In this document: in pieces, positions 6,351-24,143 of the stretch
How positions within the stretch are numbered: position 1 is the first letter of the stretch
Layout: every line of letters starts with the position of its first letter
Assembly: GCA_045631365.1 (NCBI GenBank)
Contig: JAZQUQ010000371.1
Span: forward strand, 1-24,143
Source: Eubacteriales bacterium
Lineage (GTDB): Bacteria > Bacillota > Clostridia > Oscillospirales > CAG-272
Length of the DNA: 24,143 nt
Reading direction: 5' to 3'
Made by a program: the position numbers and the translations under genes
Notes under the pieces: generated by a model
Databases searched by the model: none
What the model was told of the DNA's origin: nothing
The model's input: only the letters and a program-made list of their open reading frames with translations

Positions 6351-6354
6351 CAAG

Positions 6355-6600: not shown

Positions 6601-6603
6601 GGA

Positions 6604-7464: not shown

Positions 7465-7479
7465 TGTAATACCTGATTT

Positions 7480-7761
7480 CTAATATCTTACGAAATAAAT
7501 TATGGTTGCTGCGATCACTGCCATGGCGAGAAGGAGATAACAAAGGGGAGGCAGGAGGGGGAGGATCCCCTTGAGTCCCTGCTGTTTAATATCGATGATC
7601 TGAAGGATGGGGAGTGCCGTGAACAATACTGCGAAAACAGGCAGGAGCGTGGACAGGGGGATCCATTCTGTGTTCAGATAGATCAAACCTAAGATCACTG
7701 CGATTCCGCTGACGAGGATTTGCACGGTTTTCAGCTTGGTTGGGGTTATCCGTTTGTTCAT
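7480..7761 (-). CDS. Small hypothetical membrane protein (~3 transmembrane segments)
   Basis: Three hydrophobic segments. The start is placed at ATG 7761 with GAGGTG upstream. Co-oriented between the 1030-aa gene and metF. Confidence 0.7.
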   Translation of the reverse strand: MNKRITPTKLKTVQILVSGIAVILGLIYLNTEWIPLSTLLPVFAVLFTALPILQIIDIKQQGLKGILPLLPPLCYLLLAMAVIAATIIYFVRY

Positions 7762-7769
7762 GATTTTTG

Positions 7770-10700
7770 TCACCTCTGATGATAATAGGGGCGGCGCGTG
7801 TTTTTGCTTCCGCTGAGGTTGGGGGTATGGGCGGACAGCTTTCTTTGTTCCGTTTCTTCTTTGTCGCGGCGGATGATGAGGATTGCGGCAAAGACGGTGA
7901 CGACGAAGAGGATGCCTACGGTGAAATAGACTTCTAATCCTCGTTCGGGTGGGAGTTCCGCGGGGGGAGTGAACAGGGCTGCCATTGCTTCGGAGGGCAT
8001 TTCTCGGCTCCTCAGAGTGACAGACTGAATTTCAAGGACGGCGGATTCTCCCGAGTACACCATGACGCCGATATAATCCACGTTGGTTTTGCCTTCAAAG
8101 TCGGAAATGGGACATTGGACGGTATGAACTGTGCCGGGTTCCACATCGTTCAGGGGGTATTCGGCACGGATTCGTTCGTTTCCGATGACGAAGATCAAGG
8201 TGGAGGCTTCCGCTGTCTCGGCAACGGAGAAACGGAAGACCAGCTGATCGATGCCGCTGAAATCCATGGATTGGTTGAAATTTCGGAGGACGATGGCACT
8301 TGCCTTGCTGATTTCATAGTCGGAATACACCCTTGTGCGGAGGGCACGGCAGGAAATTCCTGCGGATTGGGAGAAGATTTCGCTTCGCTCCGTGCTGCAG
8401 CCGATTACGGTTCCCCCGGATACCCAGCCGTCATTGTGATACAGATTGGTGAAATCCCACACGGTGTAGCGGTAGTCGTTTTTTTCTTCCGGTTCTGCCG
8501 AGTCTGAGGTGTACTCTGCGTCGAGGGTGACGATTGTGCTGTTTTTGCCCCAGTCGCGGAGGTTTTTGAGGTTTCGGTAGAGCTGTTCCTTTCTTTCGTC
8601 TAAAATCCATCTTACGGAAAGGAAGACTGCCGTTGGATTTTGGGAAAGGACCTCTTCGCAAAGGGTATCGTATTCGGCGGTGATGCTTTCGGCGGAGGAG
8701 GCTTCGTTGGGGGTATAGAAATAGAGAATACCTTTTGCTTCACCGTTTACACCGAAGTGGGAAGAGGCATCGAAGAGACGTTTTGCGTCGGAAAGAAGGG
8801 CGTGGAAGGTCTCTTCTTCTTGCTTATCTTCGGAATAGAGGCAGTACATGACGTACCACGTGGGGCTGCCCATTCTCTTGTTGTGCCATGCCACCATTTG
8901 GTTGACGATATGATTATAGCTTCCGTTGGCGTTGTAGGGGATGATGATGCTTGTGTGGGAGGGCTCAAGGGTAGCGTTGACTGTATTGAAAGTAACGTTG
9001 ATTAAAGCGGACAGTTTCGCGGTATAGGCATAGATCGCCAAGGGGGTGTCTTCCGGGAAGGAGTCCGCGGAGTAGCTTACCGCGTTCCCCAGGATGATGC
9101 CGCTGACCGCATCCTGCATCAAGGCGCTGTCGTAGGTTAAAAAAGTGCGCAGGATTGCGGAATAGATCTCCATATCCCATGCATTGAGGGTGGAGATGTT
9201 GGTGAGAAAGTTGGTGTTTTTGTCGGTGATTCGAAGATACACGTCAAGGTTTGCGGAATGATAGAAGCCGATTTCGGTCAGAAGCTCTCCCATAAGGGCT
9301 GCATCCAGATAGACTGCGGTGCCGTCAGAGCCATAGGTTTTCACCGTGTTGGAATAAGGGAGGTGGGAGGCTTGACGGTCGGGGGGGACGGTTTGCGTTA
9401 CCAGACGGTCAAAGGGGACGTCTACGATGACGTGGGAGGCATTCGATTCGAAGGTTCCCACCACAGAGCCTCCTTCAATGCCTACGATGGAATGGCTGCT
9501 GCTTGTGGGGCTGCCGTACTCTGCACCTCTCGGCATGGAGATCAGGAGGGGGGAATGGTCTGCACCTTCTACGGTAACGCAGAACATGTGAGTTCCTGCG
9601 TATCGTGCGGTCAGCTCTGCATCCAAAATCAGCTCGAAATTCATGTACAGTTGGCTGCGGTGAAGTTCTGTTCCGTCGTAGACCGGCTGTCCGTTTTCAA
9701 TTTTTGATTCTGCTGTATAGGGGACTGCGTAGACTACAAGTTCGTCTTTTTTGTAGGTGTTGGTGATTTTTTGAGAGACACTTCCTTGAATCGTCAGGCG
9801 TCCGTTTTCGGGATTGACTGTGATTGCGGAAACATATCCGTTACCCGTTGCCTGAGGAGGGAGATCGGTTGTGAAAAGGATATCAATGGATTCGATGCAG
9901 ATTCCGTTTCCGCTGTACACGCTGTTTCGGAAGGACAGGCGGTAGGAAACCATGGCATCAGATGCTGTAAAGGGGAAGGAATACACAGCCCGTCCGTTCT
10001 GCATTGGCAGGGCACCGCATTCGGCATAGGTTATGAGATTGTTTTTTGCAGAACGGGAGCCCATGGAGAGGGTGCCTCCTTCAATATTACCCGAAAGGGT
10101 GACCAGCATGAAGGCTTGGGTTCCCTCGGCGGGAAGCTCGCTCAGGACGATATCGCCGTCCAGATCGGTTGAGTTTCCGTAAGGATGCACGGAGATGAGA
10201 CCGCCTGTTTCGGTGAGGCGTCCCCCTGTGATTTTAAAGAGAGAGGTATTGTATCGGCTGATGTAGTTCTTTTGCGTATCGTTATGGAAGAAAAGAGGGG
10301 AGATCCGGATTTTCTCGGGCACATCAACGGTATCGAATGAAAAGGTGACGGTGATGGATTCGATGGAGGATGCTTCGGTGATATCCATTCGGATTTCGTG
10401 CCATGCGTTGAGGGGAACCATTGCTTGAGTTGAGATTGTTTTGAGATTGTCGGACAGGGGGCATTCGATGGTGACACGGCAATAGCCGCTTGCGTTTTCT
10501 GCTTCGATATTCAGGGGAATGGTGAGGGTGGTATAGTTTTCTGCGTTTTCAGGTTCCGGATAGATCAGCTGCAGGGCGTTATCGGAGAAGGTGTCTCTGA
10601 AATTGAGTTGGAGGATGGTTGTGCCGTTGAGCTTTTGTCTGCTGGTACGAACGGTGCTTGACGAGACGGTCCACGAGCTCGAAAAGTTTTGATCCAGATA

Positions 10701-10862
10701 GGATTTGGATGGGTCCGGTTTTACGGTGCCGGTGGGGGCGGTGGTTTTCTTTACGTAGGAGGGAGTGTAAACCGTTTCCGCGGCCGACACGGCAAGTCCG
10801 AGAAACAAAGAAAAAACTGCAATTATAACAAGCATTTGCTTAATCCATATGGGGCGTTTCAA
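7770..10862 (-). CDS. Large secreted, C-terminally membrane-anchored protein; central region possibly DUF5722/glycoside-hydrolase-like barrel
   Basis: TTG start with GGAGG RBS, N-terminal signal peptide (...GLAVSAA), C-terminal TM segment plus a basic tail, 1030 aa. The domain call is by resemblance only. Confidence 0.75.
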   Translation of the reverse strand: MKRPIWIKQMLVIIAVFSLFLGLAVSAAETVYTPSYVKKTTAPTGTVKPDPSKSYLDQNFSSSWTVSSSTVRTSRQKLNGTTILQLNFRDTFSDNALQLIYPEPENAENYTTLTIPLNIEAENASGYCRVTIECPLSDNLKTISTQAMVPLNAWHEIRMDITEASSIESITVTFSFDTVDVPEKIRISPLFFHNDTQKNYISRYNTSLFKITGGRLTETGGLISVHPYGNSTDLDGDIVLSELPAEGTQAFMLVTLSGNIEGGTLSMGSRSAKNNLITYAECGALPMQNGRAVYSFPFTASDAMVSYRLSFRNSVYSGNGICIESIDILFTTDLPPQATGNGYVSAITVNPENGRLTIQGSVSQKITNTYKKDELVVYAVPYTAESKIENGQPVYDGTELHRSQLYMNFELILDAELTARYAGTHMFCVTVEGADHSPLLISMPRGAEYGSPTSSSHSIVGIEGGSVVGTFESNASHVIVDVPFDRLVTQTVPPDRQASHLPYSNTVKTYGSDGTAVYLDAALMGELLTEIGFYHSANLDVYLRITDKNTNFLTNISTLNAWDMEIYSAILRTFLTYDSALMQDAVSGIILGNAVSYSADSFPEDTPLAIYAYTAKLSALINVTFNTVNATLEPSHTSIIIPYNANGSYNHIVNQMVAWHNKRMGSPTWYVMYCLYSEDKQEEETFHALLSDAKRLFDASSHFGVNGEAKGILYFYTPNEASSAESITAEYDTLCEEVLSQNPTAVFLSVRWILDERKEQLYRNLKNLRDWGKNSTIVTLDAEYTSDSAEPEEKNDYRYTVWDFTNLYHNDGWVSGGTVIGCSTERSEIFSQSAGISCRALRTRVYSDYEISKASAIVLRNFNQSMDFSGIDQLVFRFSVAETAEASTLIFVIGNERIRAEYPLNDVEPGTVHTVQCPISDFEGKTNVDYIGVMVYSGESAVLEIQSVTLRSREMPSEAMAALFTPPAELPPERGLEVYFTVGILFVVTVFAAILIIRRDKEETEQRKLSAHTPNLSGSKNTRRPYYHQR

Positions 10863-10907
10863 GTTGACTTCCTCCGTTTCTTTTTGGATTATGACGTTAT
10901 TCTCCTT

Positions 10908-10936
10908 ATTATATCATATAAATTATGCTGAATCAA
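10908..10936 (-). promoter_or_regulatory. Sigma-A promoter of the 1030-aa gene
   Basis: Minus strand TTGATT, 17 bp, TATAAT, with an extended -10 TG. Confidence 0.7.
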
Positions 10937-11001
10937 TGCCGGACTTGTAAAATTGGGGGGAGCAATGGAGTTTCGCGGTCTTTTTTCAGATATTTAAACA
11001 G

Positions 11002-11038
11002 AAAAATCTCTCTGCCTTTTGTTGACAGAGAGATTTTT
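11002..11038 (-). terminator. Intrinsic terminator after mscS
   Basis: 13 bp inverted repeat AAAAATCTCTCTG/CAGAGAGATTTTT; potentially bidirectional. Confidence 0.8.
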
Positions 11039-11046
11039 TGGTGTTA

Positions 11047-11865
11047 TTACTTTTCTTCGGTATCTTTTGCGTAGTGGACGGTGATCTGGGGGAAGGGAAT
11101 TTCGATTTCGAACTGGTCGAATGCCTTCTTTACGTCTTCGTACATATCGAAGTTTACGGTCCAATAGTCACCGGATTTGCACCACACGCGGAGCTTCATG
11201 GTGATGGCGGAATCGCCGTGTGCTGCTACAAACACTGCAGGAGCAGGATCGGTAAGAACCAGGTCGTTATTCTTTGCAGCTGCGAGGAGAACCTTTCTTG
11301 CCAGATCCAGATCGGTGGAGTAGGACACGGTGAAGTCGAAATCCAGACGGCGGGTGTCGTGGGTGGAAAGGTTGGTGATGGAATTGTTTGTAAGGATGGA
11401 GTTGGGGATGACTACGTCACGGTTATCCCCTGTGGTCAGCTTGGTATAGTAGATGCCGATATCCTTTACCACACCATCGCCGTTGGGGGTTGTGATGAAA
11501 TCACCTACGTGGAAGGGGCGGCAGAACATGATGATAACGCCGCTTGCAATGTTGGAAAGCCCTCCCTGAAGTGCAAGACCGATTGCGATGCCGGCGGAAC
11601 CGAGAATTGCGATAAGGGATGCGGAGGGAACGCCGATGATTTCAACGACTACGATGATGACGATGATCTTGAGGAGTACGCTGAAGAAGTTGGCGCAGAA
11701 GGACTGAACATTTACATCCAGCTTGCTGTACCACTTGGTTTTTTGTGTCTGTTTGAGGATGAAGTCTGTCAGTTTGAAGCCGACGAGAAGGACGATCAGG
11801 GCGAAAATCAGGTTGATACCGAACTTGACAACGTAGGTGTTGACAAAATTCAAAAGCCATTCCAT
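11047..11865 (-). CDS. mscS: Small-conductance mechanosensitive channel
   Basis: Three TM helices; GIAIGLALQGGLSNIASG, PFHVGDFI, VVIPNS, IEIPFPQ. Confidence 0.93.
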   Translation of the reverse strand: MEWLLNFVNTYVVKFGINLIFALIVLLVGFKLTDFILKQTQKTKWYSKLDVNVQSFCANFFSVLLKIIVIIVVVEIIGVPSASLIAILGSAGIAIGLALQGGLSNIASGVIIMFCRPFHVGDFITTPNGDGVVKDIGIYYTKLTTGDNRDVVIPNSILTNNSITNLSTHDTRRLDFDFTVSYSTDLDLARKVLLAAAKNNDLVLTDPAPAVFVAAHGDSAITMKLRVWCKSGDYWTVNFDMYEDVKKAFDQFEIEIPFPQITVHYAKDTEEK

Positions 11866-11936
11866 AGAAAAGGTCTCCTTTTTATTTTTTTCGTAATATG
11901 TAGGCGATGATGGGATTCATTACCGCCGCTTCTTAT

Positions 11937-11965
11937 ATTATATCGTATTCTTTCGTAAATATCAA
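11937..11965 (-). promoter_or_regulatory. Sigma-A promoter of mscS
   Basis: Minus strand TTGATA, 17 bp, TATAAT. Confidence 0.7.
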
Positions 11966-11999
11966 GTATTCTTTCGGGATTGATTGATTTTTTTACGGT

Positions 12000-12518
12000 T
12001 CATTCAAACTTCAGGATATATTTGGATTCTTCGGTTTGGGTGTTGGCGTTTCGGTTGTTGCGGATTCCCGTTTCGGAAAGGGTCATTCCGATGTGCTTCA
12101 TGACTTTGGAGGAGGCTTGGTTTTGGCTGTCGCAGCAGGCATAGAGGAGCTTTAACGTGGGGATGGTTCGGGCGAAGTCTCGGACGGCAAGGGCGGCTTC
12201 CGTCATATAGCCGTGACCCCAATGGTCGCGGTGGAGAATCCAGCCCAGTTCTGCCTTGGTCATGGTTTCGTCCAATTCCAGCGAGATTTCCCCAATGTGT
12301 GTGTGGTTCCGTTCTATGGCGAAAAAATAATCGCGTTGGGGGATGCGGGCCATTTTTTCTTCCATTTTTATCAGTTCTGCCCGGGCTTCGGTAAGGTTTG
12401 CGTAGGGGAGGAAGAGCATATATTCCGTATTTTCGGGATTGCCTGCGTAGGCGAAGACTGTTGTCAGATCGTTTGTAGTCAGAGGGCGGAGAGTGAGGCG
12501 GGGTGTGGTGAGTGTCAT
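12000..12518 (-). CDS. GNAT N-acetyltransferase (RimJ/RimL family)
   Basis: TPRLTLRP N-terminus, ELGWILH..HWGHGYMTEAA, N.ASSKVMKHIGM. Confidence 0.88.
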   Translation of the reverse strand: MTLTTPRLTLRPLTTNDLTTVFAYAGNPENTEYMLFLPYANLTEARAELIKMEEKMARIPQRDYFFAIERNHTHIGEISLELDETMTKAELGWILHRDHWGHGYMTEAALAVRDFARTIPTLKLLYACCDSQNQASSKVMKHIGMTLSETGIRNNRNANTQTEESKYILKFE

Positions 12519-12550
12519 TTGGCTGCCTTTCTTGATGGAGAATTCTCTTG

Positions 12551-12600
12551 AAAAAACAACAGACCGGAGGTTGTTTTCTCCGGTCGTGTTTGTTTTTGCT
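12551..12600 (-). terminator. Intrinsic terminator after rplS
   Basis: GACCGGAG/CTCCGGTC stem flanked by A-rich and T-rich tracts. Confidence 0.75.
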
Positions 12601-12605
12601 TGAGA

Positions 12606-12953
12606 TTAGTTCTGGATCATTTCCTTAACCTTGGATGCCTTACCAACTCTGTCTCTGAGGTAGTACAGCTTGGAGCGTCTTACCTTACCGTAGCGGATTA
12701 CCTGTACAGCCGCAACGTTGGGAGAGTGGAGGGGGAAGGTCTTTTCTACACCGCAGCCATATGCTACGCGGCGTACTGTGAAGGTTTCGGAAATCCCGCC
12801 GCCATGACGTGCGATTACGGTTCCTTCAAACATCTGGATTCTTTCTCTTGTACCTTCAACAATCTTGTTGCTGATGCGGACGGTGTCACCGACCTTGAAG
12901 GAAGGTACTGTTTCCTTCAGCTGCTCATTTGTAAAAGCGTCGATCTTGTTCAT
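12606..12953 (-). CDS. rplS: 50S ribosomal protein L19
   Basis: [50 protein letters not shown] at 12953 with AAGGAGGAG RBS. Confidence 0.98.
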
Positions 12954-12977
12954 TTTTCGACTCCTCCTTAATAACAC

Positions 12978-13314: not shown

Positions 13315-13668
13315 ATTACGGAAGAGAAGAAGACGATGATTGCCCGTGAGATGATCCGTCGGCAGAACGTTGCTGAGGTTCTCCGCGAGCACGGGGTTTC
13401 CGAGGAAGAGTTTCTTCGGTGGCTGGAGGAGGGTGAGGTGGCGGAATACCTTTACCGTATGGCAAAGACCAAGGCGATGGCCAAGGTATCCGAGCTTTGG
13501 CTGAAGCTGGAGAAAATGGCTGCGGCGGGGGATTTGAAGGCCATGAAGCTGTACTATGATCTTTGCGATCGGATGCGATCGGAAGAAAAGGGCAGTGAGG
13601 TGGGTGCTGATCCCGAGATTGACAGAATCAGACAGGAGCTTTTCGGCAATGGGCAAGCAGAGCGCTGA
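13315..13668 (+). CDS. Terminase small subunit-like helix-turn-helix protein
   Basis: N-terminal HTH-like segment (VAEVLREHGVSEEEFLRWL) and a helical GDLKAMKLYYDL motif. It overlaps the TerL start. The start is ambiguous: ATT 13315 (with RBS) or ATG 13336. Confidence 0.7.
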   Translation: MTEEKKTMIAREMIRRQNVAEVLREHGVSEEEFLRWLEEGEVAEYLYRMAKTKAMAKVSELWLKLEKMAAAGDLKAMKLYYDLCDRMRSEEKGSEVGADPEIDRIRQELFGNGQAER

Positions 13669-14935
13669 GAAGTACGTATTCGGGGAAAAGCACCGTGAGT
13701 ACATGAGGCGTGCGGCTGTCTGCACGATCAACGTGGCGGAGGGTGCTGTCCGTGCGGGGAAAACCGTGGACAATGTATTCGTCTTTGCGGCGGAACTGGA
13801 ACGGTCGGCGGATCGGTTTCATCTTGCAAGCGGTTCCACTTTGGGAAATGCCAAGCTGAACATCGGGGACTGCAACGGGCTGGGGCTTGAGAACATTTTC
13901 CGAGGGCGTTCCAGATGGGGAAAGTACCGTGGGAATGAATGCATGATTGTTCAAACGGCTATGGGAGAGAAGGTCATCATTTTTGCGGGGGGGAAGAATG
14001 CGGATGCGTACAAGAGGATCCGAGGAAATTCCTATGGAATGTGGATTGCTACGGAGATTAACCTTCATGCGGATTCCTTTATTCGGGAGGCGTTCAACCG
14101 TCAGCTTGCCGCTGTACATCGGAAGGTTTTTTGGGATTTGAACCCTTCTGCTCCGAATTCTTTGATTTACCGTGAGTATATTGATCGGTATGCGGAGATG
14201 GGGGAAGAGAACTTTTTCAACTATGCCCGTTTTACCATCCGCGACAATCCTGTGATTTCTCCCGAGCGGCTTCGTGAGATTGAGGCGCAGTATGACAAGG
14301 CTTCCATTTGGTATCGGCGCGATATTTTGGGAGAGCGATGTGCTGCGGAGGGGGTGATTTATCATCTCTTTGCCAATGACCGAGCGAGGTTTACGGTGAA
14401 ATCCGTGGATGCGAATGCCATGGAATTTATCAACATCGGGGTGGACTTTGGCGGAAACCGATCGAAAACCACCTTTGTGGCTGCGGCGTTTCTTCGGGAT
14501 GGGACGATCTGCATTGTGAAGGATCATGCGGTCAGCGGAGGGAAGGGGGAGATTGATTCCCCGCGGATCAATGAAGAGCTCAGAGTGTTTATGGAAGGGT
14601 TGAGGAGGGATTTTCCCGGGGTGAGTATCCGATACGTTTTCTGTGACTCTGAGGCTCAGTATCTGATCAATGGTTTACGACGGAGTCTGCGAGGGTGCGG
14701 GACGGTGATTTCCGACTGCGCGAAGAAGAGGATCCGGGACCGTATTGCCTTTGTGAATTCCATGATGGCGGCGGGGAAGTTTATGCTTCTGGAACGGTGC
14801 AGCCTTGTGGCGGACGGTCTTGCCTGTGCGGTTTGGGATGACAGCGGAGAGGACAAGAGACTGGATGATTTTACCTCCGACATTGACATCCTGGATGCTA
14901 TGGAATATGCCATTGAACGGTATATGAAGCGGTGA
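13649..14935 (+). CDS. Terminase large subunit (PBSX-like)
   Basis: Walker A EGAVRAGKT, WDLNP coupling motif, nuclease acidic motifs IGVDFG, FCDSE and DIDILDAMEYAIE. ATG 13649 follows CAGGAG. Confidence 0.92.
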   Translation: MGKQSAEKYVFGEKHREYMRRAAVCTINVAEGAVRAGKTVDNVFVFAAELERSADRFHLASGSTLGNAKLNIGDCNGLGLENIFRGRSRWGKYRGNECMIVQTAMGEKVIIFAGGKNADAYKRIRGNSYGMWIATEINLHADSFIREAFNRQLAAVHRKVFWDLNPSAPNSLIYREYIDRYAEMGEENFFNYARFTIRDNPVISPERLREIEAQYDKASIWYRRDILGERCAAEGVIYHLFANDRARFTVKSVDANAMEFINIGVDFGGNRSKTTFVAAAFLRDGTICIVKDHAVSGGKGEIDSPRINEELRVFMEGLRRDFPGVSIRYVFCDSEAQYLINGLRRSLRGCGTVISDCAKKRIRDRIAFVNSMMAAGKFMLLERCSLVADGLACAVWDDSGEDKRLDDFTSDIDILDAMEYAIERYMKR

Positions 14936-15006
14936 TGGAAAGGAAGTTTTGCTGTTTTGCTGCCGTTTGAGTGGATGATTTTCAAAATTATTCTGTTGGA
15001 GGAAAA

Positions 15007-16398
15007 ATGAAAGAAGAAATATTAAAAATTCTCGCAGAACAGGTGGGCACTGCTGTGGGGATTGGCTGTTATGCCCGTATTGATGAGTGGCTGGCGTGGT
15101 GGAGAGGGACCTATCCTTCCTTCCATCTCTATTGGGAAAACGGGGTGGGAGGATATCCCATTCGCCGTGAGCTTTATCGCATGAACATGGCGAAGAAGAT
15201 TTGCGAGGATTGGGCGGCTATTCTGATGAACGACCGTACCTATGTGAATGTTCCTCACGAGCTTACTAAGCATTGGCTGGATACTCATCTTGGTGACGCT
15301 TTTTTTCGAGGAATGAACCGTTTGATTGAAAAGACCTTTGCTTCGGGGACGGGTGCTTGTCTGATTCGGCTCAATGGAGCGGAACTGGACGAGGATGGAA
15401 GAATTCTTCCCATAGTGGGGTTCCGAGGTGTGGGGGGACCTGAGATCTCTTTTGATTTTGTGGATGCCTCTCATATTATTCCCATTACGGTGCGAGGCGG
15501 GGAGATGATAGAAGCGGCGTTTGTTTCCGAAGTTCGCATACGTGGAGAGGCGTTGATTTATCTGGAAATTCACACGCTGGAGGAGGATGGGTACGTGATC
15601 CGTAACCGTCTTTACCGTCAGCAGGATGCCGTTCTTGAGGAAGTGCGAGGCGGTGGAGAGGCGGCGGCTGTGATCCGTACGGGATCCCGTATTCCGTTTT
15701 TCGCCATTCTGACGCCCAATCTTCTCAACCATATTGATGAGGGAAGCGGGATGGGGATTTCCGTTTTTGCGGATGCCATTGACTGTCTGAAAGGGGTGGA
15801 CTTAGCATTCAACAATTTCTGCCGCGACATTAAGCTGGGCGGAAAAAAGGTGTTTATCAATCAGTCTTTGATCTGCCGTGATGCGGATGGGAATGTATAT
15901 ACGCCCGATGACGTGGCTCAGCAGTTGTTTGTGACCGTTGGGGACACGGATATTGCGGACAATCCCATGATTACGGAGCATAATCCCGAGCTTCGCAGCA
16001 ATGAAAATGCGGATGCGGTGCAGAGTCAGCTTGATTACCTTTCCTTCCGCTGCGGGCTTGGTACACAGCATTATCAATTCCGTAATCTGAGGGGTGTGGC
16101 GAAGATGACTGCCACTCAGTATATGGGGGAAAAACAGGATCTTCGTCAGAATGCGGCGAAGCATGGGCAGAACCTTGGTTTATTCCTTCGCCGAATTGCG
16201 GAATGTGTGGTTTTCCTTGGGGAGGCGGTATATGGGCTTCCTTTGGACGGAACCGGTCTCAGTATTCGGTTTGACGACAGTTATTTCATTGACAGCGACA
16301 GCGAGCGAAGCCGTGATCTTCATGAGATGGAGCTTGGGGTGATGACGGCGGAGGAATTCCGTGAAAAATGGTACGGTACGCCTTTGGGAGGCGGTTGA
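15007..16398 (+). CDS. Phage portal protein (SPP1/A118-like)
   Basis: NMAKKICEDWA, GISVFADAIDCLKGVDLAFNNF and IRFDDSYFID..., EEFREKWYG C-terminus. It follows TerL. ATG 15007 follows GGAGG. Confidence 0.88.
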   Translation: MKEEILKILAEQVGTAVGIGCYARIDEWLAWWRGTYPSFHLYWENGVGGYPIRRELYRMNMAKKICEDWAAILMNDRTYVNVPHELTKHWLDTHLGDAFFRGMNRLIEKTFASGTGACLIRLNGAELDEDGRILPIVGFRGVGGPEISFDFVDASHIIPITVRGGEMIEAAFVSEVRIRGEALIYLEIHTLEEDGYVIRNRLYRQQDAVLEEVRGGGEAAAVIRTGSRIPFFAILTPNLLNHIDEGSGMGISVFADAIDCLKGVDLAFNNFCRDIKLGGKKVFINQSLICRDADGNVYTPDDVAQQLFVTVGDTDIADNPMITEHNPELRSNENADAVQSQLDYLSFRCGLGTQHYQFRNLRGVAKMTATQYMGEKQDLRQNAAKHGQNLGLFLRRIAECVVFLGEAVYGLPLDGTGLSIRFDDSYFIDSDSERSRDLHEMELGVMTAEEFREKWYGTPLGGG

Positions 16399-16412
16399 AA
16401 GGAGGTGACGGT

Positions 16413-16826
16413 ATGAGTGAATCCATCAAGAATTTGTTCGGAGAGGAAGCGATCAGCTATGAGGAGCTTATTCGCCGTGCGGAGGATGCCAAGGTGAAGA
16501 TCGGGGATCTTACGGAGGCGGAAGCGGCACATCGGAAGGAATTGGACGGGATTTGCATTTCCCATGCGTTGGAGCGAGGGCTTGAGAGACTTGGAGCGAA
16601 AAATGCGGACCTTGTTCGTCGTGCCATCCGACTTGAGACGGTATCTGTGGAAAACGGGAAGGTTGTGGGACTGGACGAGCAGCTTTCCGCTTTGCAGGCC
16701 AGCGACCCGTATCTGTTTCGTGAGCGAGAGACGGTTCGTACGGGGGGAGAGCATGGGCAATCCTTCCGTGACCCTGACAGCATGAGTGATGCGGATTTTT
16801 ACAAAATTCGATTTGGCTGCCGATAA
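16413..16826 (+). CDS. Capsid scaffolding protein (GP20-like)
   Basis: GAKNADLVRRAI, VVGLDEQLSALQASDPYLF and C-terminal MSDADFYK; located between portal and coat; RBS AAAGGAGGTG. Confidence 0.8.
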   Translation: MSESIKNLFGEEAISYEELIRRAEDAKVKIGDLTEAEAAHRKELDGICISHALERGLERLGAKNADLVRRAIRLETVSVENGKVVGLDEQLSALQASDPYLFRERETVRTGGEHGQSFRDPDSMSDADFYKIRFGCR

Positions 16827-16855
16827 TTGGCAGAAAAAACTACATTTTATATTAT
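16827..16855 (+). promoter_or_regulatory. Possible internal sigma-A promoter upstream of the coat gene
   Basis: TTGGCA (16827-16832), 17 bp, TATTAT (16850-16855), in an AT-rich 57 bp gap. Confidence 0.45.
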
Positions 16856-16883
16856 TATTTTCAAACAAGAAAGGATTTTTATT

Positions 16884-17981
16884 ATGGCAGAAACATTTTT
16901 TTCAGTAAAACAGATTGCAAGGGAGACTCTTCCCAGACTGATTGATAATCTTGTATTCCCTAACCTGGTGTACAAGGATCTTTCCTCTGCGTTTACCGCG
17001 AAGAGAGGGGATACGGTTGGGGTTCGCAGACCGGTGAAGCTTTGTGCGGAGGAGTTCAATGAGACCTCCGGCGTTTCTCCCGTGGGCTTCGCGGACGACA
17101 CCGTTGACGTGAAGCTTGACAAGATTGCGACCGTGGATATGGAGGTTTCCGCGGTGGAGGCAGCCTGTGATTTTGATTCTCTGACACGACTTTTCATCGA
17201 GCCTGCGGCTGCTGCTCTGGCGGAAAAGATTAACCGCGACGGTCTGGCGCTTTACAAGGACATTCCTTACGTGATGGGTACTGCGGGAACTTCTCCCGAC
17301 GGTCTGGACGATCTGGCGGGGGCAGCCTTTGCTCTGGACACCCTTCGTGTGCCTACCGATGCAAGATGCGCGGTTTGGGATCCCTATACGACCTCCAAGC
17401 TGAAGCAGATTCCTGCTGTGGTGAACGCGGAAAAGTGCGGAAGTGCCAAGGCTCTCCGTACCGGCTCCATCGGCAGAATTTTCGGTGTGGAAAACTATAT
17501 GTCTCAGGGTGTTTGTGATCATGAGACAGAGCTTTCCTCCGCTTCCTTTACGGTGAAGGCTGACGTGGCAGATTCCGATAAAGTGACCATTACTTCTGCT
17601 TCTGCAAACGGCAGTGTGCGTAAGGGGGACATCCTTACCGTGAACGGAAGCACCTATACGGTCACCGCGGATGCGGCTGTTGTGGGCAATGAGGCTGTGG
17701 TTTCCGTTTATCCCAAGATGACGGCAAACGCCAAGGATGCGGTGGTATTCACTCCTTCTCACAAGGCAAACCTGGTGTTCCATCCCAATGCCTTTGCTTT
17801 TGTGACACGTCCTCTTTCTACTCCTGCGGGTGTGGAATCCTATGTTACCACTTACAACGGCATTTCTCTCCGTGTGGTGAGAGGATACAACATGAAGTAC
17901 AAGAAGGAAGTTCTTTCTATGGATATCCTGTACGCCTTCAAGACCATTTATCCCGAACTTGCGGTTCGTTATCTGGCGTGA
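16884..17981 (+). CDS. Major capsid protein, P22 coat-like family
   Basis: IARETLPRLIDNLVF, KRGDTVGVRRP, FIEPAAAALAEKIN, a beta-rich insertion domain, NLVFHPNAFAFVTRPL and SMDILYAFK. ATG 16884 follows AGAAAGGA. Confidence 0.88.
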   Translation: MAETFFSVKQIARETLPRLIDNLVFPNLVYKDLSSAFTAKRGDTVGVRRPVKLCAEEFNETSGVSPVGFADDTVDVKLDKIATVDMEVSAVEAACDFDSLTRLFIEPAAAALAEKINRDGLALYKDIPYVMGTAGTSPDGLDDLAGAAFALDTLRVPTDARCAVWDPYTTSKLKQIPAVVNAEKCGSAKALRTGSIGRIFGVENYMSQGVCDHETELSSASFTVKADVADSDKVTITSASANGSVRKGDILTVNGSTYTVTADAAVVGNEAVVSVYPKMTANAKDAVVFTPSHKANLVFHPNAFAFVTRPLSTPAGVESYVTTYNGISLRVVRGYNMKYKKEVLSMDILYAFKTIYPELAVRYLA

Positions 17982-17982
17982 T

Positions 17983-18339
17983 ATGGATTACGGTTATTAT
18001 TTAAACAAATTCGGCGGAAAATTGATTCCCGAGGAGGATTTCTGCCGTGTGATGGAGGAGGGGAAGGGGATTCTCCTCTCCCTCCTCTTCCCTTTGAGGG
18101 AGGAGGATCTTTCCTCGGGGGACAGAGAGGTGTTCTGCCGTGCGTTATGCTATGAGGCGGAGTATCTCTTCTCGGGAAAGAACGAGGAAGGAACCGTGAA
18201 GTCGGAGAAGGCGGGGGATTATTCCGTTACTTACCGCTCTGTTTCGGACAAGAAGACGGTCAGCGTGTTTGGCAGTGAGGTTTCGCCCGCTGCTTGTCAT
18301 CTTCTCCTTGCATCGGGGTTAATGTTAAGGTGGGTGTGA
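17983..18339 (+). CDS. Head-tail connector (adaptor, gp15-like)
   Basis: YGYYLNKFGGKLIPEEDF N-terminus, ALCYEAEYL and SEKAGDYSVTY; immediately after the coat gene. Confidence 0.75.
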   Translation: MDYGYYLNKFGGKLIPEEDFCRVMEEGKGILLSLLFPLREEDLSSGDREVFCRALCYEAEYLFSGKNEEGTVKSEKAGDYSVTYRSVSDKKTVSVFGSEVSPAACHLLLASGLMLRWV

Positions 18340-18341
18340 GA

Positions 18342-18737
18342 ATGCTTTTGAAGGACAGAGCGACGGTTTTTATGCGGCAGGAGCCTGAAGCCGATCCGTA
18401 CGGGGTGGCGTTCAGACGGTTTGATCTTCGCGGTGTGATGGTTTTTGAAAAACAGGCTGTATCCTTGGATCGTGCGGTGGGGGGAGACCGCGGTGACGGG
18501 GGACGTTGCGTGGTTTATTTCTTTCCTGCCAGAAGCGAGATTGTGGGAAAGAGGCGTGGCGATCCTGCCGATGGGTTCCCTAAGGTGAGTCCCGGGGATC
18601 TTCTTGTGGTGGGGGCTTGCAGAGATCGATTTGACCCTTGTGCCGATGCGGACGGGATTTGCCGCAGGATCGTTTCGGTGGAAAAGAGGACGTGTGGTTC
18701 GGAACGGGTGCATCACATTGTGATTGAGGCAATCTGA
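18342..18737 (+). CDS. Head-closure-like neck protein
   Basis: Beta-rich 131-aa protein with PGDLLVVG and a C-terminal HHIVIEAI; it occupies the position after the adaptor. Confidence 0.6.
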   Translation: MLLKDRATVFMRQEPEADPYGVAFRRFDLRGVMVFEKQAVSLDRAVGGDRGDGGRCVVYFFPARSEIVGKRRGDPADGFPKVSPGDLLVVGACRDRFDPCADADGICRRIVSVEKRTCGSERVHHIVIEAI

Positions 18738-18750
18738 CGGAGGTGTTGAG

Positions 18751-19197
18751 TTGGAAGCTTTATGGGAGATGGTTTGCTCTTATCTGAATGGATTTGAAGG
18801 GAGGATTTGTGATGTTCTTCCTGAGGAGATTGGAAAAAATCGTCCGTGTGCGGGGATTTTCGTGCAGGCGGGGACGAAAGAGAAGGCGTATCTTGACGGA
18901 TCGGTTTGTGTACGGATTCCGTTTATGCTTTGTCTGCGGATGAACGCATATTCCGTGAGGGAGAAGTTGGACGGGGTGGGAAGTCTGATGGGGCTTTTGC
19001 GGTACGTTCGGACTGTTCCTTGCAGAGGGGAGTTTAAAGGAGGACATATTGTGGGAATTCACGGGACGGACATTCCTTATCGATCTGTGGTATTTGACGA
19101 CGGTGGAGAAGAATTCAAGATGAACTTTTCTGTAGACGTGAGGTTGGATTTGGCCGCTCCGGATTTGACGGAAATGGAGGATGTTGATGAACATTGA
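18751..19197 (+). CDS. Tail terminator / minor-capsid-like neck protein
   Basis: TTG start 5 nt after GGAGGTG; KEKAYLDGSVCVRIPFML motif; occupies the third neck position. Confidence 0.6.
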   Translation: MEALWEMVCSYLNGFEGRICDVLPEEIGKNRPCAGIFVQAGTKEKAYLDGSVCVRIPFMLCLRMNAYSVREKLDGVGSLMGLLRYVRTVPCRGEFKGGHIVGIHGTDIPYRSVVFDDGGEEFKMNFSVDVRLDLAAPDLTEMEDVDEH

Positions 19198-19969
19198 GAT
19201 TGTATCGGGGGAGAACGTTCTCACGTTTTCCCCCTCATCTCCCCTTCGTATTCTTGCGGGGGGAATGGTTGGGTTTGACGGAGGGGAGACTCATCTTTCC
19301 TTTGAGGGAAATGCGGGGGGGATGGGGGCTTCTTTGATGGGGTGTTGTTTCCCTGAGAGAGAAATGAAAATTCGGTTTGAAATTGATGCAGTATCTTCCG
19401 AGGACGAGGCGGAATGGATGCGGTGGGTTCAAAAGGCTGCTTCTCCGGGAGAGGCTTGTGTGATCCGTTCCGAGAGGTTTGGCAGGTGGTGTCAGATCGA
19501 GGCTTTTGTGACAAAGGTTTCCTTTGAGCGGGACAAGGTATTTGAACGAATGGAGGGGGAGGTTTGTTTTTCTGCTCCGATCCCCTTCTTTGAGGCTATT
19601 GATGCTGTGACGGGGATGATTTCCGTGGGAAATTTGGGTTCTGACGTGTATAACAGCGGTGATGTATCTTGCGGTGTGCGAGTGGTGATACGTGCTGTTG
19701 GGGGGACGGTGGTGGCGCCTTCCGTGAAACTGGAGGAACGTGTGATTCGGATTACGGAGAGCCTTTCTGATGGGGATGAGCTGGTGATTGATACTCGTTT
19801 TGGTCGAAAAGGAGTATGGATCAACGGAGTGGAGAGTTTCAATTTCGATGGGAAGAGCAGCTTTTTCTCCCTTACGGTGGGGGAAAACAGGGTTTCTGCG
19901 GATGCGGATGAGGGAAAGGAGTTTATGGCGGTATCCTACGAGTTGAAACCGCTGTATTTTGGAATTTGA
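19187..19969 (+). CDS. Distal tail protein (Dit, siphovirus-tail family)
   Basis: PEREMKIRFEI, FSAPIPFF, VYNSGDVSC, GDELVIDT, FFSLTVGENRV and PLYFGI. ATG 19187 follows GGAGG. Confidence 0.8.
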   Translation: MNIEIVSGENVLTFSPSSPLRILAGGMVGFDGGETHLSFEGNAGGMGASLMGCCFPEREMKIRFEIDAVSSEDEAEWMRWVQKAASPGEACVIRSERFGRWCQIEAFVTKVSFERDKVFERMEGEVCFSAPIPFFEAIDAVTGMISVGNLGSDVYNSGDVSCGVRVVIRAVGGTVVAPSVKLEERVIRITESLSDGDELVIDTRFGRKGVWINGVESFNFDGKSSFFSLTVGENRVSADADEGKEFMAVSYELKPLYFGI

Positions 19970-20949
19970 TGGAGTGTTATTTCTTAGACAAGGAGTTATG
20001 TAGGATTACGCCTCCCATTGACACGGTTGTATCGCTTCGATGGAATCTGCGTTTCTACGAATGCGGGAGATTTCGTGCGGTTTTGGCGGCGGATTCAGGG
20101 CTTGCTGCTTCGGTCAAGAAAGCGGAGTATCTTTTGTCCGTGCAGGAAGGAGGAGTTCGCTGCGGCAGGATTGATTCCGTTGAGATTGTAGGGGGAAAGA
20201 TCAAGCTTGAGGGACGGCTGCCGGAGTGTCTTCTTTCGGACCATTTGATTGAGGGAACGTTTCGGCAATCCGGACGGGTCAATGATGCCGTTGTGCGGGC
20301 GGTTTCCGAAAATTGCAGGGAGCTGCCCTTGATTGTAGGGGAAGATTCTGCAGTGATCGATGGCAGCGGTGTTTTTTCGGTTGTTTGGGAGAATTTGGGG
20401 GCTTGGGTTTATCGTGTGCTCAAACCTTACGGCGCTTCTTGCAGAGTGGATTTTGATTCGGAACGAAGTACTTTTGTATTTCGTGTGGTGAATCCCGAAA
20501 GAGAAAGCAGAACGGTGTTTTCCGCTTCATTCGGAAATATTTGGGATGCGGAATATTGTAGGGATTCATCCTCATTAAAAAACAAGGTGTCCATCGAGGG
20601 AAAAGACGGGAAGATGGTTTGTATAGACATATCAAACGGGGCGGCAAAGAAAGAGGTGTATCGAAAGGCGGAGGATCTCAGTTTGGATTTGTTTGAGACA
20701 GTGTCGGAATATGCTGAGGCGTTGGTGATTCGTGCCAAAGAGGTTCTTTCCGGCTATGAATCGGGGACGGTTTTGCGTTTCAAGCTTTCCGGGAAAGAAG
20801 AGCTTCGTTTTGAACGGGATTACCAGATGGGGGATTTTTGCTATGCTGCGGATGAGGAGACGGGAAGGTATGCAAAAGCGAGGATTGTCGGTGCGGATGA
20901 GGTATGGGAAAACGGGGGACGGACGATAAGACTTTCTCTGATGCTTTGA
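19969..20949 (+). CDS. Baseplate hub / Tal-like protein (ReqiPepy6 Gp37-like)
   Basis: SLRWNLRFYECGRF, VFSASFGNI, KEVYRKAED and FERDYQMGDF motifs. TGATG coupling to Dit. No enzymatic C-terminal extension. Confidence 0.75.
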   Translation: MECYFLDKELCRITPPIDTVVSLRWNLRFYECGRFRAVLAADSGLAASVKKAEYLLSVQEGGVRCGRIDSVEIVGGKIKLEGRLPECLLSDHLIEGTFRQSGRVNDAVVRAVSENCRELPLIVGEDSAVIDGSGVFSVVWENLGAWVYRVLKPYGASCRVDFDSERSTFVFRVVNPERESRTVFSASFGNIWDAEYCRDSSSLKNKVSIEGKDGKMVCIDISNGAAKKEVYRKAEDLSLDLFETVSEYAEALVIRAKEVLSGYESGTVLRFKLSGKEELRFERDYQMGDFCYAADEETGRYAKARIVGADEVWENGGRTIRLSLML

Positions 20950-20990: not shown

Positions 20991-21026
20991 AAATAAAAAC
21001 CCCCTCCTGCATGAGCAGAAGGGGGT
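20991..21026 (-). terminator. Intrinsic terminator of the discoidin-protein gene
   Basis: ACCCCCTCCTGC-ATGA-GCAGAAGGGGGT stem. Its single C/A mismatch is a G-U pair on the minus strand, and the A-tract at 20991-20999 gives a minus-strand U-tail. Confidence 0.8.
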
Positions 21027-21083
21027 GTGAACCGGATAGGATCAATATCACAGGTTCAATGATTCAGTTTGAGCTGTCAGAGA

Positions 21084-22895
21084 TTACTTTCTCTTCTTTG
21101 TGATTGCGTAGCCTGCTGCGGAAACGATAGCAGCAACAGCGGCGATTACGCCCATATCGAAGGTCTGGGGAGCAACGGGTGTGTCTGTGCCTTCGGTGGG
21201 AGCAGTTGTTTCTGCGGGGATTTCAACTGTTTCTGCAGCGTAGATCTTCATTTCATAAATGCCGAGTTCTGCACAAGGATGATCAAGGGTGGTGTTGATA
21301 ATACGGAAGTATTCGTAAGCGTTTGTGTCGGAGATTGTCTTTGTGAACCAACCTTCCGCATCCTTTGTTTCTGCATTGCCTGCGAATACTGCAAGGTCAA
21401 CCCAGTTGATACCGTCAACGGAGCCCTGGAAGTAGAGATCTTCGGTGATATCATCGGTACCGCGGTTGATCTTTACAGAAGAAACTGCGGTAGCAGCATC
21501 AGCCTTGAGACCAACCCAGAACTGGATACCGTTGTATCTCGGAATTGTGCCGTAGTGTGTGTCGAGATTGCCGTCGAATGCAGATTCTACACCTGCATCT
21601 CTGCCTGTCCAACCGTCGAAGGTTTCACCGCAAACGGGAGTACCGGAGATTTCGGTATCAACAACAGTATTCTTCGCTGCTGCGTAGTAGAGGGGACCCT
21701 CGTACTTGTTGTGTGTAGCGATAACGGGATCAACAGTGAAGGGTTCAGCAGCTGCTGCGGGAGCACCGTAAAGTGCAAGGTCTGCGCAGGAGCTCTGGAG
21801 AGGACCGCTGGATACGTAACGGAAGTAAGTGTAGCCGTTTGTATCGGTAACGGGCTTGCTCACCCAGTCCTGCTTGGAGGGAACGTCGTCGATGGAGTAT
21901 TCAACCAGAGTTCTCCAGTTTACACCGTCGAGAGAACCCTGAACCAGACCGTACTGAATGTCGGTATAGCAGCCTCTCTTGGGGAGGATTCTTACCTCGG
22001 TGAGAGCATGGGGCTCGTCGAACATCATACCAACCCAGCATTCGGGACCTTCCAGAGAGGGGTCGAAGTGAGTTCTGCCGTTGTTGTCGAATGCCTTTTC
22101 GTAAGCAGCCTTGTTCCAGATACCGCCGCCGCCGATGATGGTGCCGGTGAGGGATCCGTCAACAGACGTTGCAGTAGCGTTGCTTCTTACGAGAATGTTG
22201 CGCCCATAGTAGTAAGGAGTTGCAATGTTCTTTGTAGCTGCAATTTCAGCGGTCAGCTCGGTAGCGGGAGCGGGATTACCGTACAGTTCAAGTTCGCCAA
22301 CGCGGTTGTCAACAACACGGTACATGCTGTAGGAACCGCCTGCGCTTACCCAATGGATACTTTCGTCCATTCTTGCACTGTAGCCTGCATCGATGTAACG
22401 CTGATCGGTTACAGTCTGAGGAGTGAAGATGTGGTAGTCGTTGCCGTGAGCGTCCTGGCGCATGATGATAATATCAGCCCAGTTCACGCCGTCGTTGGAG
22501 CCCTGAAGCCAGAAATTGAAGAAATCGCCTGCTTCCAGATTGGGGTTGGGTGCCGCACGGACTTCGGTGAGCTCGTAAGCCTGATCGAGAATCAGACCTG
22601 CCCAACCGAGGTCGAGACCCATGTAATGGGTGTCCTGCTTGCCGTCAAACATGAGGTCTGCGCTGTTTGCACCGTCGCACTGAATGCCCTGTGCGTTCTG
22701 GCTTGTGAAAATGGTACCCTTCAGAAGCTGACCTGTGGTCACTTCGGGCAGCCCTGTGGATGTGGATGCGGGGTATGCGGCTGCGGTGATTTCACCCAGC
22801 TTTACATAGTCGCTGTTTTCTTCCCACGCGGATGCTGTGAGGGATGTGCCTGCAAGCATCAGTCCTGCGAGAAGAAGGGAAAAGAGTTTCTTCAT
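21084..22895 (-). CDS. Secreted surface protein with three discoidin/F5-8 type C (CBM32-like) domains and a PQTFD sorting-like tail
   Basis: Signal peptide MKKLFSLLLAGLMLAGTSLTASA. Three repeats of (A/M)FD(G/N)...TH...W.G...QGS.DG.NW. C-terminus APQTFD, hydrophobic stretch, KKRK. Confidence 0.85.
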   Translation of the reverse strand: MKKLFSLLLAGLMLAGTSLTASAWEENSDYVKLGEITAAAYPASTSTGLPEVTTGQLLKGTIFTSQNAQGIQCDGANSADLMFDGKQDTHYMGLDLGWAGLILDQAYELTEVRAAPNPNLEAGDFFNFWLQGSNDGVNWADIIIMRQDAHGNDYHIFTPQTVTDQRYIDAGYSARMDESIHWVSAGGSYSMYRVVDNRVGELELYGNPAPATELTAEIAATKNIATPYYYGRNILVRSNATATSVDGSLTGTIIGGGGIWNKAAYEKAFDNNGRTHFDPSLEGPECWVGMMFDEPHALTEVRILPKRGCYTDIQYGLVQGSLDGVNWRTLVEYSIDDVPSKQDWVSKPVTDTNGYTYFRYVSSGPLQSSCADLALYGAPAAAAEPFTVDPVIATHNKYEGPLYYAAAKNTVVDTEISGTPVCGETFDGWTGRDAGVESAFDGNLDTHYGTIPRYNGIQFWVGLKADAATAVSSVKINRGTDDITEDLYFQGSVDGINWVDLAVFAGNAETKDAEGWFTKTISDTNAYEYFRIINTTLDHPCAELGIYEMKIYAAETVEIPAETTAPTEGTDTPVAPQTFDMGVIAAVAAIVSAAGYAITKKRK

Positions 22896-22953
22896 AGAAT
22901 GTTTCCTCCGTTTTTTTGCCGATTCGATCGACAGTATATTTTTATACGGATAT

Positions 22954-22982
22954 ATTCTATCACAAATCAGCTATTTTTTCAA
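22954..22982 (-). promoter_or_regulatory. Sigma-A promoter of the 603-aa gene
   Basis: Minus strand TTGAAA, 17 bp, TAGAAT, with an extended -10 TG. Confidence 0.75.
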
Positions 22983-23089
22983 TATGTTTTCCAATTATTT
23001 TTTGCTTCAATATGTACAAAATATTTCAGTATTCTTAGTGAAAATGCTCATAGACTGCCGTTGGAGCATCAGACATGGGGTCCGATACG

Positions 23090-23136
23090 AAAAACTCCCC
23101 TTTCCGCGACGAGAATCCGTGACGAAAAAGGGAGTT
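23090..23136 (-). terminator. Intrinsic terminator of the upstream paralog
   Basis: Long stem 23093-23136 whose three C/A mismatches are G-U pairs on the minus strand; A5 at 23090-23094 gives the U-tail. Confidence 0.7.
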
Positions 23137-23166
23137 CTGTTATATCAATGGGTCAAATCAGAGGAA

Positions 23167-24143
23167 TTACTTTCTCTTCTTTGCAACTGCATAACCTGCA
23201 GCGGAAACTACAGCAGCAACAGCAGCGATCACGCCTGCGTCGAAGGTCTGAGGAGCTTCAACGGGTGTATCAGAACCTGCAGCGGGTGTATCTGCAGCGG
23301 GAGCCTCAGTTTCTGCGGGAACGTCAACGATTTCAGCCGCGTAGATCTTGATTTCGTCTGCGCTGAGAGAACAGTTGGGGTGATCGGTGGAGGGGTTCAT
23401 CAGACGGAAGTAGGTGTAAACGCCGGTGTCGGTGATTTCTCTTGTGTTCCAGCCGTCGGCATCCATTGCGGTAACATTGTTGTTGATTACGGCAAGGTCA
23501 ACCCAGTCGATGCCGTCAACAGAGCCCTGGAAGAAGATGTCTTCTTCATAGCCGCTCTTATTCAGAATCTTGACGGTGGAAATCGAAGTAGCAGTATCAG
23601 CCTTCAGACCAACCCAGAACTGGTCACCTTCGAATCTCGGAATGGTGCCGTAGTATGTATCGGCATTTCCGTCAAATGCCATTTCAATGGAGCGTCCGTA
23701 GCCAACCCAGCCGTTGTAGCCGAGACCGCAGATGGGATTACCGGAGATTTCATTGTCGACGATGGTGTTCTTGGTTTCGGAAATGTAAAGTTCACCGGTG
23801 TACTTGTACTGGGTAGCGATGATGGGATCTACGGTGAAGGGTTCAGCAGCTTCTGCGGGAGCACCGTAGAAGAGGAGATCCGCAACGGAACTCATTGTAT
23901 CGGTTACGCATACATAACGGAAGTAGTAGTAGCCTTCTGTTATGGGGAATGTCTTGATGACCCAATCCTGCTTTGTGGTGCAGTCTTCGACGGAATATTT
24001 AACCAGCGTCTTCCAGTTTACACCGTCAAGAGAACCCTGAATTTCACAGTGCTGAATGTCGGTGTAGCAGCCTCTCTTGGGGAGAACTCTTACTTCGGTT
24101 AGACCGATGGGTTCATCAAACTTCACGCCCACCCATGTTTCGG
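23167..24143 (-). CDS. Paralogous discoidin-domain surface protein (5' end outside the window)
   Basis: The frame is open to the window edge (...ETWVGVKFDEP). It is co-linear with domains 2-3 of 21084-22895 and has the same APQTFD-TM-KKRK tail. Confidence 0.85.
   Translation of the reverse strand, partial: ETWVGVKFDEPIGLTEVRVLPKRGCYTDIQHCEIQGSLDGVNWKTLVKYSVEDCTTKQDWVIKTFPITEGYYYFRYVCVTDTMSSVADLLFYGAPAEAAEPFTVDPIIATQYKYTGELYISETKNTIVDNEISGNPICGLGYNGWVGYGRSIEMAFDGNADTYYGTIPRFEGDQFWVGLKADTATSISTVKILNKSGYEEDIFFQGSVDGIDWVDLAVINNNVTAMDADGWNTREITDTGVYTYFRLMNPSTDHPNCSLSADEIKIYAAEIVDVPAETEAPAADTPAAGSDTPVEAPQTFDAGVIAAVAAVVSAAGYAVAKKRK

Follow-up and report, generated by a model that had tools for sequence, protein, structure and literature searches.

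The window analyzed here, 24,143 bp in length, is one whole contig (C371) of a metagenome-assembled genome from a gut bacterium of Oscillospiraceae type (G000; G-numbers denote genomes and L-numbers fetched loci) that has 409 contigs, is 91% complete, and has 5.8% contamination, and genome-wide absences reported for G000 carry that scope. The leftmost part (1–12977) contains the host genes clpX, dnaX, recR, a beta-lactamase-fold gene, metF, MscS, GNAT and rplS; between metF and MscS there is a leftwards transcribed ORF (7770–10862) encoding a 1030-residue product with no Pfam or PHROG match. To the right is a head-tail cluster of ten co-oriented genes extending from 13336 to 20949, in which all of the ORFs are intact and tightly coupled (Table 1). 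The true start of TerL is likely to be near position 13661. The second neck protein, X131, also matches the g125 homologue of L021, and its weak DUF6751 match and Minor_capsid_1-like features are treated as leads only; it is probably a stopper or head-closure-like protein. No integrase, replication or regulatory module is present in the 24-kb window.

The cluster stops immediately after the Tal gene at 20949, and its right neighbours are convergent, minus-strand host genes coding for surface proteins, paralogues of which are found on at least 10 other G000 contigs with protein identities up to 57%. The hairpin between the two is predicted to terminate the surface-protein gene at 21084–22895. 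Plus-strand ORFs at 21069–23351 and 22837–24102 were considered as possible tail genes and rejected, as they are shadows of the minus-strand surface-protein genes.

Table 1. Features of the head-tail cluster and its right flank in the window, and of the short tape measure-like (TMP-like) ORFs at related loci.
Feature	Location	Strand	Evidence and remarks
TerS-like (HTH), first gene of cluster	13336–13668	+	PF13022, 3.4e-8; homologue 5′ of TerL in all relatives
TerL	13556–14935	+	phrog_2, 6e-26; congeners 62–69% identical
Portal	14971–16398	+	phrog_533, 4.2e-75
Scaffold	16368–16826	+	PF06810, 67.8 bits
P22-type major capsid protein (coat)	16827–17981	+	PF11651, 129.6 bits; phrog_283, 1.3e-75
Head-tail adaptor	17983–18339	+	phrog_541, 1e-11; identity 57% with G042, 71% with L052
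Second neck protein X131 (X)	18342–18737	+	Homologous to second neck gene of relatives (46% identity with L044)
Predicted tail terminator Y148 (Y)	18751–19197	+	AlphaFold2 fold, Foldseek; orthologue of gene 5′ of tube in relatives
Coupling junction	19176–19197	+	GGAGG, Dit ATG, terminator TGA, 11-nt overlap; read from sequence
Dit	19187–19969	+	PF22768, 38 bits (cut-off 25); phrog_33, 3.7e-15
Tal/hub-like, last gene of cluster	19969–20949	+	PF14594, 85.8 bits (cut-off 26.2); phrog_538, 5.6e-35
GC-rich hairpin	20999–21026	.	12-bp stem, T-run on minus strand; between cluster and convergent surface-protein gene
Two paralogous secreted, membrane-anchored surface proteins	21084–22895, 23167–24141	-	Signal peptides; large family
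TMP-like ORF	L012:9344–9487	-	
TMP-like ORF	L023, near 9057–9200	-	
TMP-like ORF	L044:10372–10713	+	
TMP-like ORF	L019:4721–5056	-	
TMP-like ORF	L046:8312–8815	+	

Within the cluster, the arrangement of the tail genes is unusual in the partners that it joins. The terminator ORF has a TTG start at 18751 preceded by GGAGG at 18739–18743, and ends with a TGA at 19195–19197; the Dit gene starts with an ATG at 19187, and its ribosome binding site (GGAGG, 19176–19180, with a 6-nt spacer) lies within the terminator gene, such that the two genes overlap by 11 nt (ATGAACATTGA, 19187–19197) with no spare sequence between them. The original prediction had given exactly these coordinates for the overlap, and had correctly described the internal GGAGG and the absence of any remnant. 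The Tal ATG at 19969 has one base in common with the Dit stop codon. Such stop/start overlaps are ordinary operon coupling and are statistically unremarkable; the odd point is the identity of the gene pair. We considered whether a tape measure remnant is fused to the C-terminus of the terminator and rejected this, the 16-residue extension being unlike the tape measure motif.

The terminator was assigned from its fold. A Y148 alignment of 38 sequences was assembled from a full HMMER scan (21 matches) together with the genus loci, and the AlphaFold2 model (pLDDT 90.8) has as its top Foldseek matches 4acv, 8bcp_B (T5 p142), 3fz2 and 8iyd_K (gpU), 9j1j_A, and 6tba_4A, with E values from 7e-5 to 4e-3. 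These are tail terminators and their tailocin and GTA counterparts, and include lambda gpU, Listeria antigen B, the monocin cap, the pyocin collar and the RcGTA neck. A terminator-family profile found no match among PDB sequences, and a tube profile (A2) found none among the genes within 17983–19197; on its modelled fold, the 18751–19197 gene is thus a tail terminator and not a tube protein, as originally proposed. Its homologue is directly 5′ of the tube gene in 27 relatives, whereas in the window the next gene is Dit. Apart from the query, a word-index search for homologues of the terminator recovered a single protein, 87% identical and encoded on a contig of 571 bp; the 87% identical ENA protein has the same DVDEH end, the part that carries the overlap. 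Searches of viral contigs with the terminator relatives P0008 and P0009 gave no match, and the terminator alignment (A3) is too variable to scan loci with.

The Dit protein retains the motifs of the C-terminal half that are conserved among its congeners, and its N-terminal half, although diverged, can be aligned with the Dits of congeners. It is at most 36% identical to the other Dit proteins of the genus, and no other genus genome has a Dit, Tal or terminator as diverged as those of G000. No relatives of the Dit were found in viral contigs or in metagenome contigs, and the best match in a phage database, phage nd12, is an ordinary siphophage with a tape measure gene 5′ of Dit. The shortness of the window Dit (260 residues) was examined as an adaptation to tube loss and dismissed, as the same 28-residue segment is gone in L033 and L049, which have a tube and a full tape measure. 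There is also a departure in base composition: over the neck and tail genes (18342–20949) the G-over-C skew is 0.33–0.44 overall and 0.40–0.56 at third positions, including 0.40–0.56 in the terminator, Dit and Tal genes, compared to third-position values of 0.07–0.29 in the head genes and the plus-strand host genes, and the homologues in relatives are without the excess. This high third-position skew may reflect weak translational selection or relaxed constraint.

Comparison with other members of the genus illustrates what is absent from the window. The cluster is carried by 43 of 53 genus genomes, usually with one match per genome, and nine or ten genomes are without it; we fetched 32 relative loci and inspected about 20 kb of each. 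The cluster of the relatives usually runs from the coat and adaptor through one or two neck genes to Y, which is followed by genes for a 158–168-residue protein, a DUF6673 protein, a Phage_Gp15 chaperone and a TMP-like protein, and then by Dit, Tal, and two genes coding for proteins of about 240 and 360 residues (d246 and d364). No gene of the cluster is better conserved than that of the 158–168-residue family (69% mean column identity), which matches PDB 11ok_A (6.6e-17); its model (pLDDT 90.4) matches the tubes of NF5, 80alpha, lambda and SPP1 as well as RcGTA chains in Foldseek, and judged by this structural resemblance it is the true tail tube that is missing from the window. A Dit match is present in 42 of the 52 congeners, all 42 of which have a tube gene, and of the 53 genomes scanned with the tube profile 43 match, all of them among the 52 congeners, leaving G000 as the only genome with Dit and without a tube. 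In another genome, G008, the Dit match (C11:3140–3460) is a 110-residue open frame and the tube match (C43:7603–7860) is weak, partial, and on another contig; this cluster may be a decaying copy. At L018, a DUF1492/HTH (phage sigma-like) gene (17960–18349, leftwards) is located just 5′ of TerS and may be what activates the cluster; nothing equivalent was seen in the window.

The missing functions do not appear to be encoded elsewhere in G000. Six proteins of a relative that are missing from the window (the tube, the chaperones, the tape measure and the two distal proteins) gave no tblastn match in the genome, nor did the tube profile A2 or PF10145, PF06854, PF04630 and PF04984, and no second capsid (PF05065), second terminase (PF17289) or sheath was found there. 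The motif found at the C-terminus of the tape measures is absent from the window. The view that there is no tube, chaperone or tape measure is therefore borne out for both the window and the 91% complete genome. The d246 and d364 genes, which are probably peripheral or receptor-binding parts, are likewise not found in G000, although every complete relative has both. Without d246, d364 and the tape measure motif, receptor binding and DNA delivery by G000 particles are doubtful.

The closest relative of the window cluster is that of G042 (L044), with which it pairs in a quick maximum likelihood tree of TerL, portal and coat (SH-aLRT 100%). The left flank of G042 is as in the window, with rplS, MscS and GNAT being 92%, 79% and 67% identical, respectively, and the genome encodes Y, a 158-residue tube, a 118-residue chaperone, a 190-residue Gp15, a 113-residue mini-TMP and Dit, with Tal, d246 and d364 on a second contig. 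This sister position, together with the shared flank and the full set of tail genes, indicates that the deletion in the window occurred after the two lineages split. Because close relatives keep tube and tape measure genes at the same spot, the layout reflects a deletion specific to this lineage, not the ancestral arrangement, and we regard it as very probable from the gene comparisons that the cluster is a deletion derivative of a tube-bearing ancestor.

The tape measures of the family bear on this loss. Every fetched genus locus that spans the interval 5′ of Dit, with the exception of the window, has a TMP-like ORF there, which ends in SPY..A..IRRESEA..R followed by the stop codon and abuts the Dit start. 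Most are 236–289 residues in length, with others of 216, 194, 167, 144, 121, 113 and 111 residues, and the shortest are in L012 (about 47 residues) and L023 (at most 60–86 residues). On the tree, short forms are spread over three or four separate clades at least, and in L012 and L023 Gp15 has been lost and the tubes have diverged. The repeated shortening, with the Dit-proximal end kept, looks like selection for shorter tails, with the window as the end point of the trend. At L023 (9542–10399, leftwards; genome G011) the terminator and tube homologues are in frame within one 285-residue ORF, which is either a natural terminator-tube fusion or a sequencing error in the MAG. A distant relative of the cluster in another family of the order (L057:7537–12336, genome G153; coat 46% identical) has an adaptor, a DUF6751-like protein, a Y-like protein, a 162-residue tube-like protein, then, directly after it, a 362-residue tail protein and two DUF6273 proteins. 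No chaperone, tape measure or Dit was detected in L057 by sequence, and it may represent another tape-measure-free architecture.

A second example of the junction is suggested by L052, a 2113-bp metagenome contig that is collinear with 17077–18959 of the window at 73% nucleotide identity; a search with the coat in viral contigs yielded one contig, which ends 85 bp past the coat gene, short of the junction. Relative to the window, identity across L052 falls from 88% in the coat to 71% in the adaptor, 53–58% in X and 47–50% in Y. The L052 Y gene ends within 35 bases of the contig end and is overlapped by an ORF starting MNDEMRIEVGLGEN. The start of its product, MRIEVGLGEN, aligns without gaps to the start of the window Dit, MNIEIVSGEN (8 of 2000 shuffles score as high), and fits the starts of tube, chaperone, Gp15 and tape measure proteins less well than that of Dit; this recurrence draws on the last 14 codons of a single 2.1-kb contig, and support becomes marginal (23 of 500 shuffles) when the profile of the Dit N-terminus leaves out the window.

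The same contig provides a measure of selection on the genes that it covers. Between the window and L052, the Nei-Gojobori dN/dS rises from 0.065 in the coat to 0.21 in the adaptor, 0.27 in X and 0.37 in the terminator, with dS at about 1.0–1.3. If the junction is common to L052, purifying selection has continued to act on the terminator long after the loss of the tube. It has nonetheless evolved quickly: at 88% coat identity the window and L052 terminators are 49% identical, compared to 57–79% in pairs with full tails at 85–88% coat identity. Y is faster still in the mini-TMP pair L012 and L023 (33% identical). This faster evolution fits relaxed constraint as well as it fits remodelling. The original prediction had foreseen that relatives with tube and tape measure genes at this position could reveal a recent one-off deletion; such relatives do exist, but the deletion does not look like a recent and single event, since a diverged metagenome relative appears to have the junction and its neck genes are under purifying selection.

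The cluster shares features with several known systems. In the relatives its flanks are host genes that vary between clades (pyruvate kinase, DUF1934 and MatE, RNase and rotamase, PHP, rplS), no integrase or replication genes were seen at any inspected locus (about 20 kb each), and related coats are scattered in other families of the order; these features fit a domesticated, GTA-like cluster. The tail genes resemble the tail module of the siphophages SPP1, TP901-1 and 80alpha, with the same terminator fold, Dit C-terminal domain (PF22768) and Tal N-domain (PF14594), and the congeners have the same gene order, including a Gp15-type chaperone (PF06854) and a tape measure. They differ in that the full relatives have very short tape measures (236–289 residues), and the window has no tube, chaperones or tape measure and its terminator overlaps Dit. 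Like the RcGTA of Alphaproteobacteria (6TBA), the cluster is a compact, structural-only set of head-tail genes that lies between host genes, shows neither integrase nor replication genes, and is carried by most species of its genus; the congeners have the gene order of RcGTA, and both the terminator and tube models match RcGTA chains. However, RcGTA is in another host phylum and keeps its tube and tape measure, and its coat is of the HK97 type, with a protease, whereas the cluster described here has a P22-type coat and a scaffold. Capsid-forming PICI satellites (cf-PICIs) have their own head and neck genes and no tail shaft, as in the window, but they also possess genes for integrase, regulation and replication and depend on a helper for complete tails, whereas the window cluster is without these and keeps its terminator, Dit and Tal. 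In lambda (gpH) and TP901-1, deletion mutants with a shorter tape measure form proportionally shorter tails, and these parallel the natural series from 289 to 47 residues, although the mutants are engineered and keep the tube and part of the tape measure. We know of no description of a complete natural loss of the tape measure and tube with coupling of terminator and Dit.

The closest parallel among gut Clostridia is FpGTA of Faecalibacterium, which is GTA-like, has a core operon of ten ORFs and no visible tail, and has been proposed to be podovirus-like (PMC12946183); its capsid is of the N4-gp56 type, with a tail nozzle (PMC12946183, supplementary file 4). The window cluster is similarly a GTA-like cluster of ten ORFs. 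The capsid type and nozzle led us to reject FpGTA as a homologue, and the two differ in derivation, FpGTA being podovirus-derived whereas in the window cluster a siphovirus-type tail would have been reduced to a stub by deletion. Two recent papers describe GTA-like packaging in gut Oscillospiraceae and assign no cluster to it (PMC12946183; bioRxiv 10.64898/2026.07.08.737213).

The most probable course of events begins with an ancestor whose genes were arranged as TerS, TerL, portal, scaffold, P22-type coat, adaptor, one or two neck proteins, terminator, tube, two chaperones, a short tape measure, Dit, Tal, and two distal genes. In the lineage of the window a deletion then took out the tube and the tape measure together with both chaperones, leaving the terminator translationally coupled to Dit, and G000 also lost the two distal genes. 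The remaining ten genes could build a DNA-filled capsid whose neck (portal, adaptor, stopper and terminator hexamer) stacks straight on a Dit hexamer that is closed by a Tal trimer. The terminator, the tube and, in characterized siphophages, the N-domain of Dit are tube-fold rings that stack by the same kind of interface. This common fold and interface makes a tube of zero length geometrically plausible, and the particle would look podovirus-like. Mechanistically, the early suggestion of a nearly tail-less virion, its Dit/hub attached to the neck, is still the best reading, in which the stacking and the function of the particle are inferred. We put the probability that the cluster still makes a working stub-tailed, GTA-like particle, with the terminator ring directly on Dit/Tal, at about 0.5. 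The intact and coupled ORFs, selection on the neck genes, the recurrence of the junction, the family trend and the common ring fold speak for it; the lost distal genes and tape measure motif, the strong divergence of the tail genes, the mutation-like skew and the brevity of the one contig with a second junction weigh against it. Somewhat more tentatively, the family as a whole may be a natural transition from siphovirus-like to podovirus-like particles, in which tape measures shrink, L023 fuses the terminator and tube, and G000 and L052 are tube-less yet working.

The chief competitor, to which we assign a smaller but substantial share of belief, is that the cluster is an inactive relic from which six to eight tail genes have been lost in two deletions, with the remaining ORFs unbroken so far or with only the head genes mattering. 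Everything from the tube to the tape measure, plus d246 and d364, is gone relative to the sister G042; G000 is alone among the 53 species genomes in having Dit without a tube; and a relic would suit both the divergence of Dit (at most 36% identity), Tal and terminator and the third-position skew of these genes, which appears mutation-driven. Nine or ten congeners are without the element, so its loss is tolerated. Decay is harder to reconcile with ten intact ORFs whose ribosome binding sites and coupled junctions are preserved, with the retention of the conserved Dit C-terminal motifs, and with neck-gene dN/dS values of 0.2–0.4 at a dS of about 1.0–1.3 versus L052, which appears to have the junction; moreover the graded and repeated shortening of the tape measures, with their C-terminal motif always kept, looks selected and not random.

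Two further readings are much less probable. Heads and necks made by the cluster could be completed by a tube and tape measure, or by entire tails, that a helper phage or a second locus provides, as in the cf-PICIs, an option raised at the outset and made attractive by complete head and neck genes without tail-shaft genes in a MAG that is fragmented and 91% complete. This is improbable given that none of the tube profile, PF10145, PF06854, PF04630, PF04984, PF05065 and PF17289 has a match in G000, that no sheath was found there, and that the window has no integrase, replication or regulatory module; borrowed tails would also bring their own terminator, Dit and Tal, and the retention of exactly these three is unexpected. 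We give least credence of all to an assembly artefact, with the contig collapsed or chimeric at the terminator/Dit junction or past Tal. The fragmentation into 409 contigs, the 5.8% contamination and the multi-copy surface-protein family on the right flank invite the suspicion, but the two operon genes meet cleanly and in frame with a ribosome binding site at the junction, the independent contig L052 appears to have the same gene order, the independent ENA protein has the same DVDEH end at the overlap, and surface-protein paralogues of at most 57% protein identity are too diverged to collapse.

To our knowledge, no siphophage studied so far is regarded as able to build a Dit/Tal-initiated tail without its tape measure and tube. 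The deletion described here seems to be old and tolerated. Were the cluster only a relic, it would have the smaller value of a dated example of stepwise decay in a domesticated phage cluster. If working, it is a candidate for the GTA-like packaging of gut Oscillospiraceae (PMC12946183; bioRxiv 10.64898/2026.07.08.737213). If the terminator, Dit and Tal have stayed under selection after the loss, then tail-tip complexes could assemble and join the neck without a ruler, which would provide a concrete route from long-tailed to short-tailed particles and a tail built without a tape measure, and the graded tape measure lengths in sister species make this idea directly testable.
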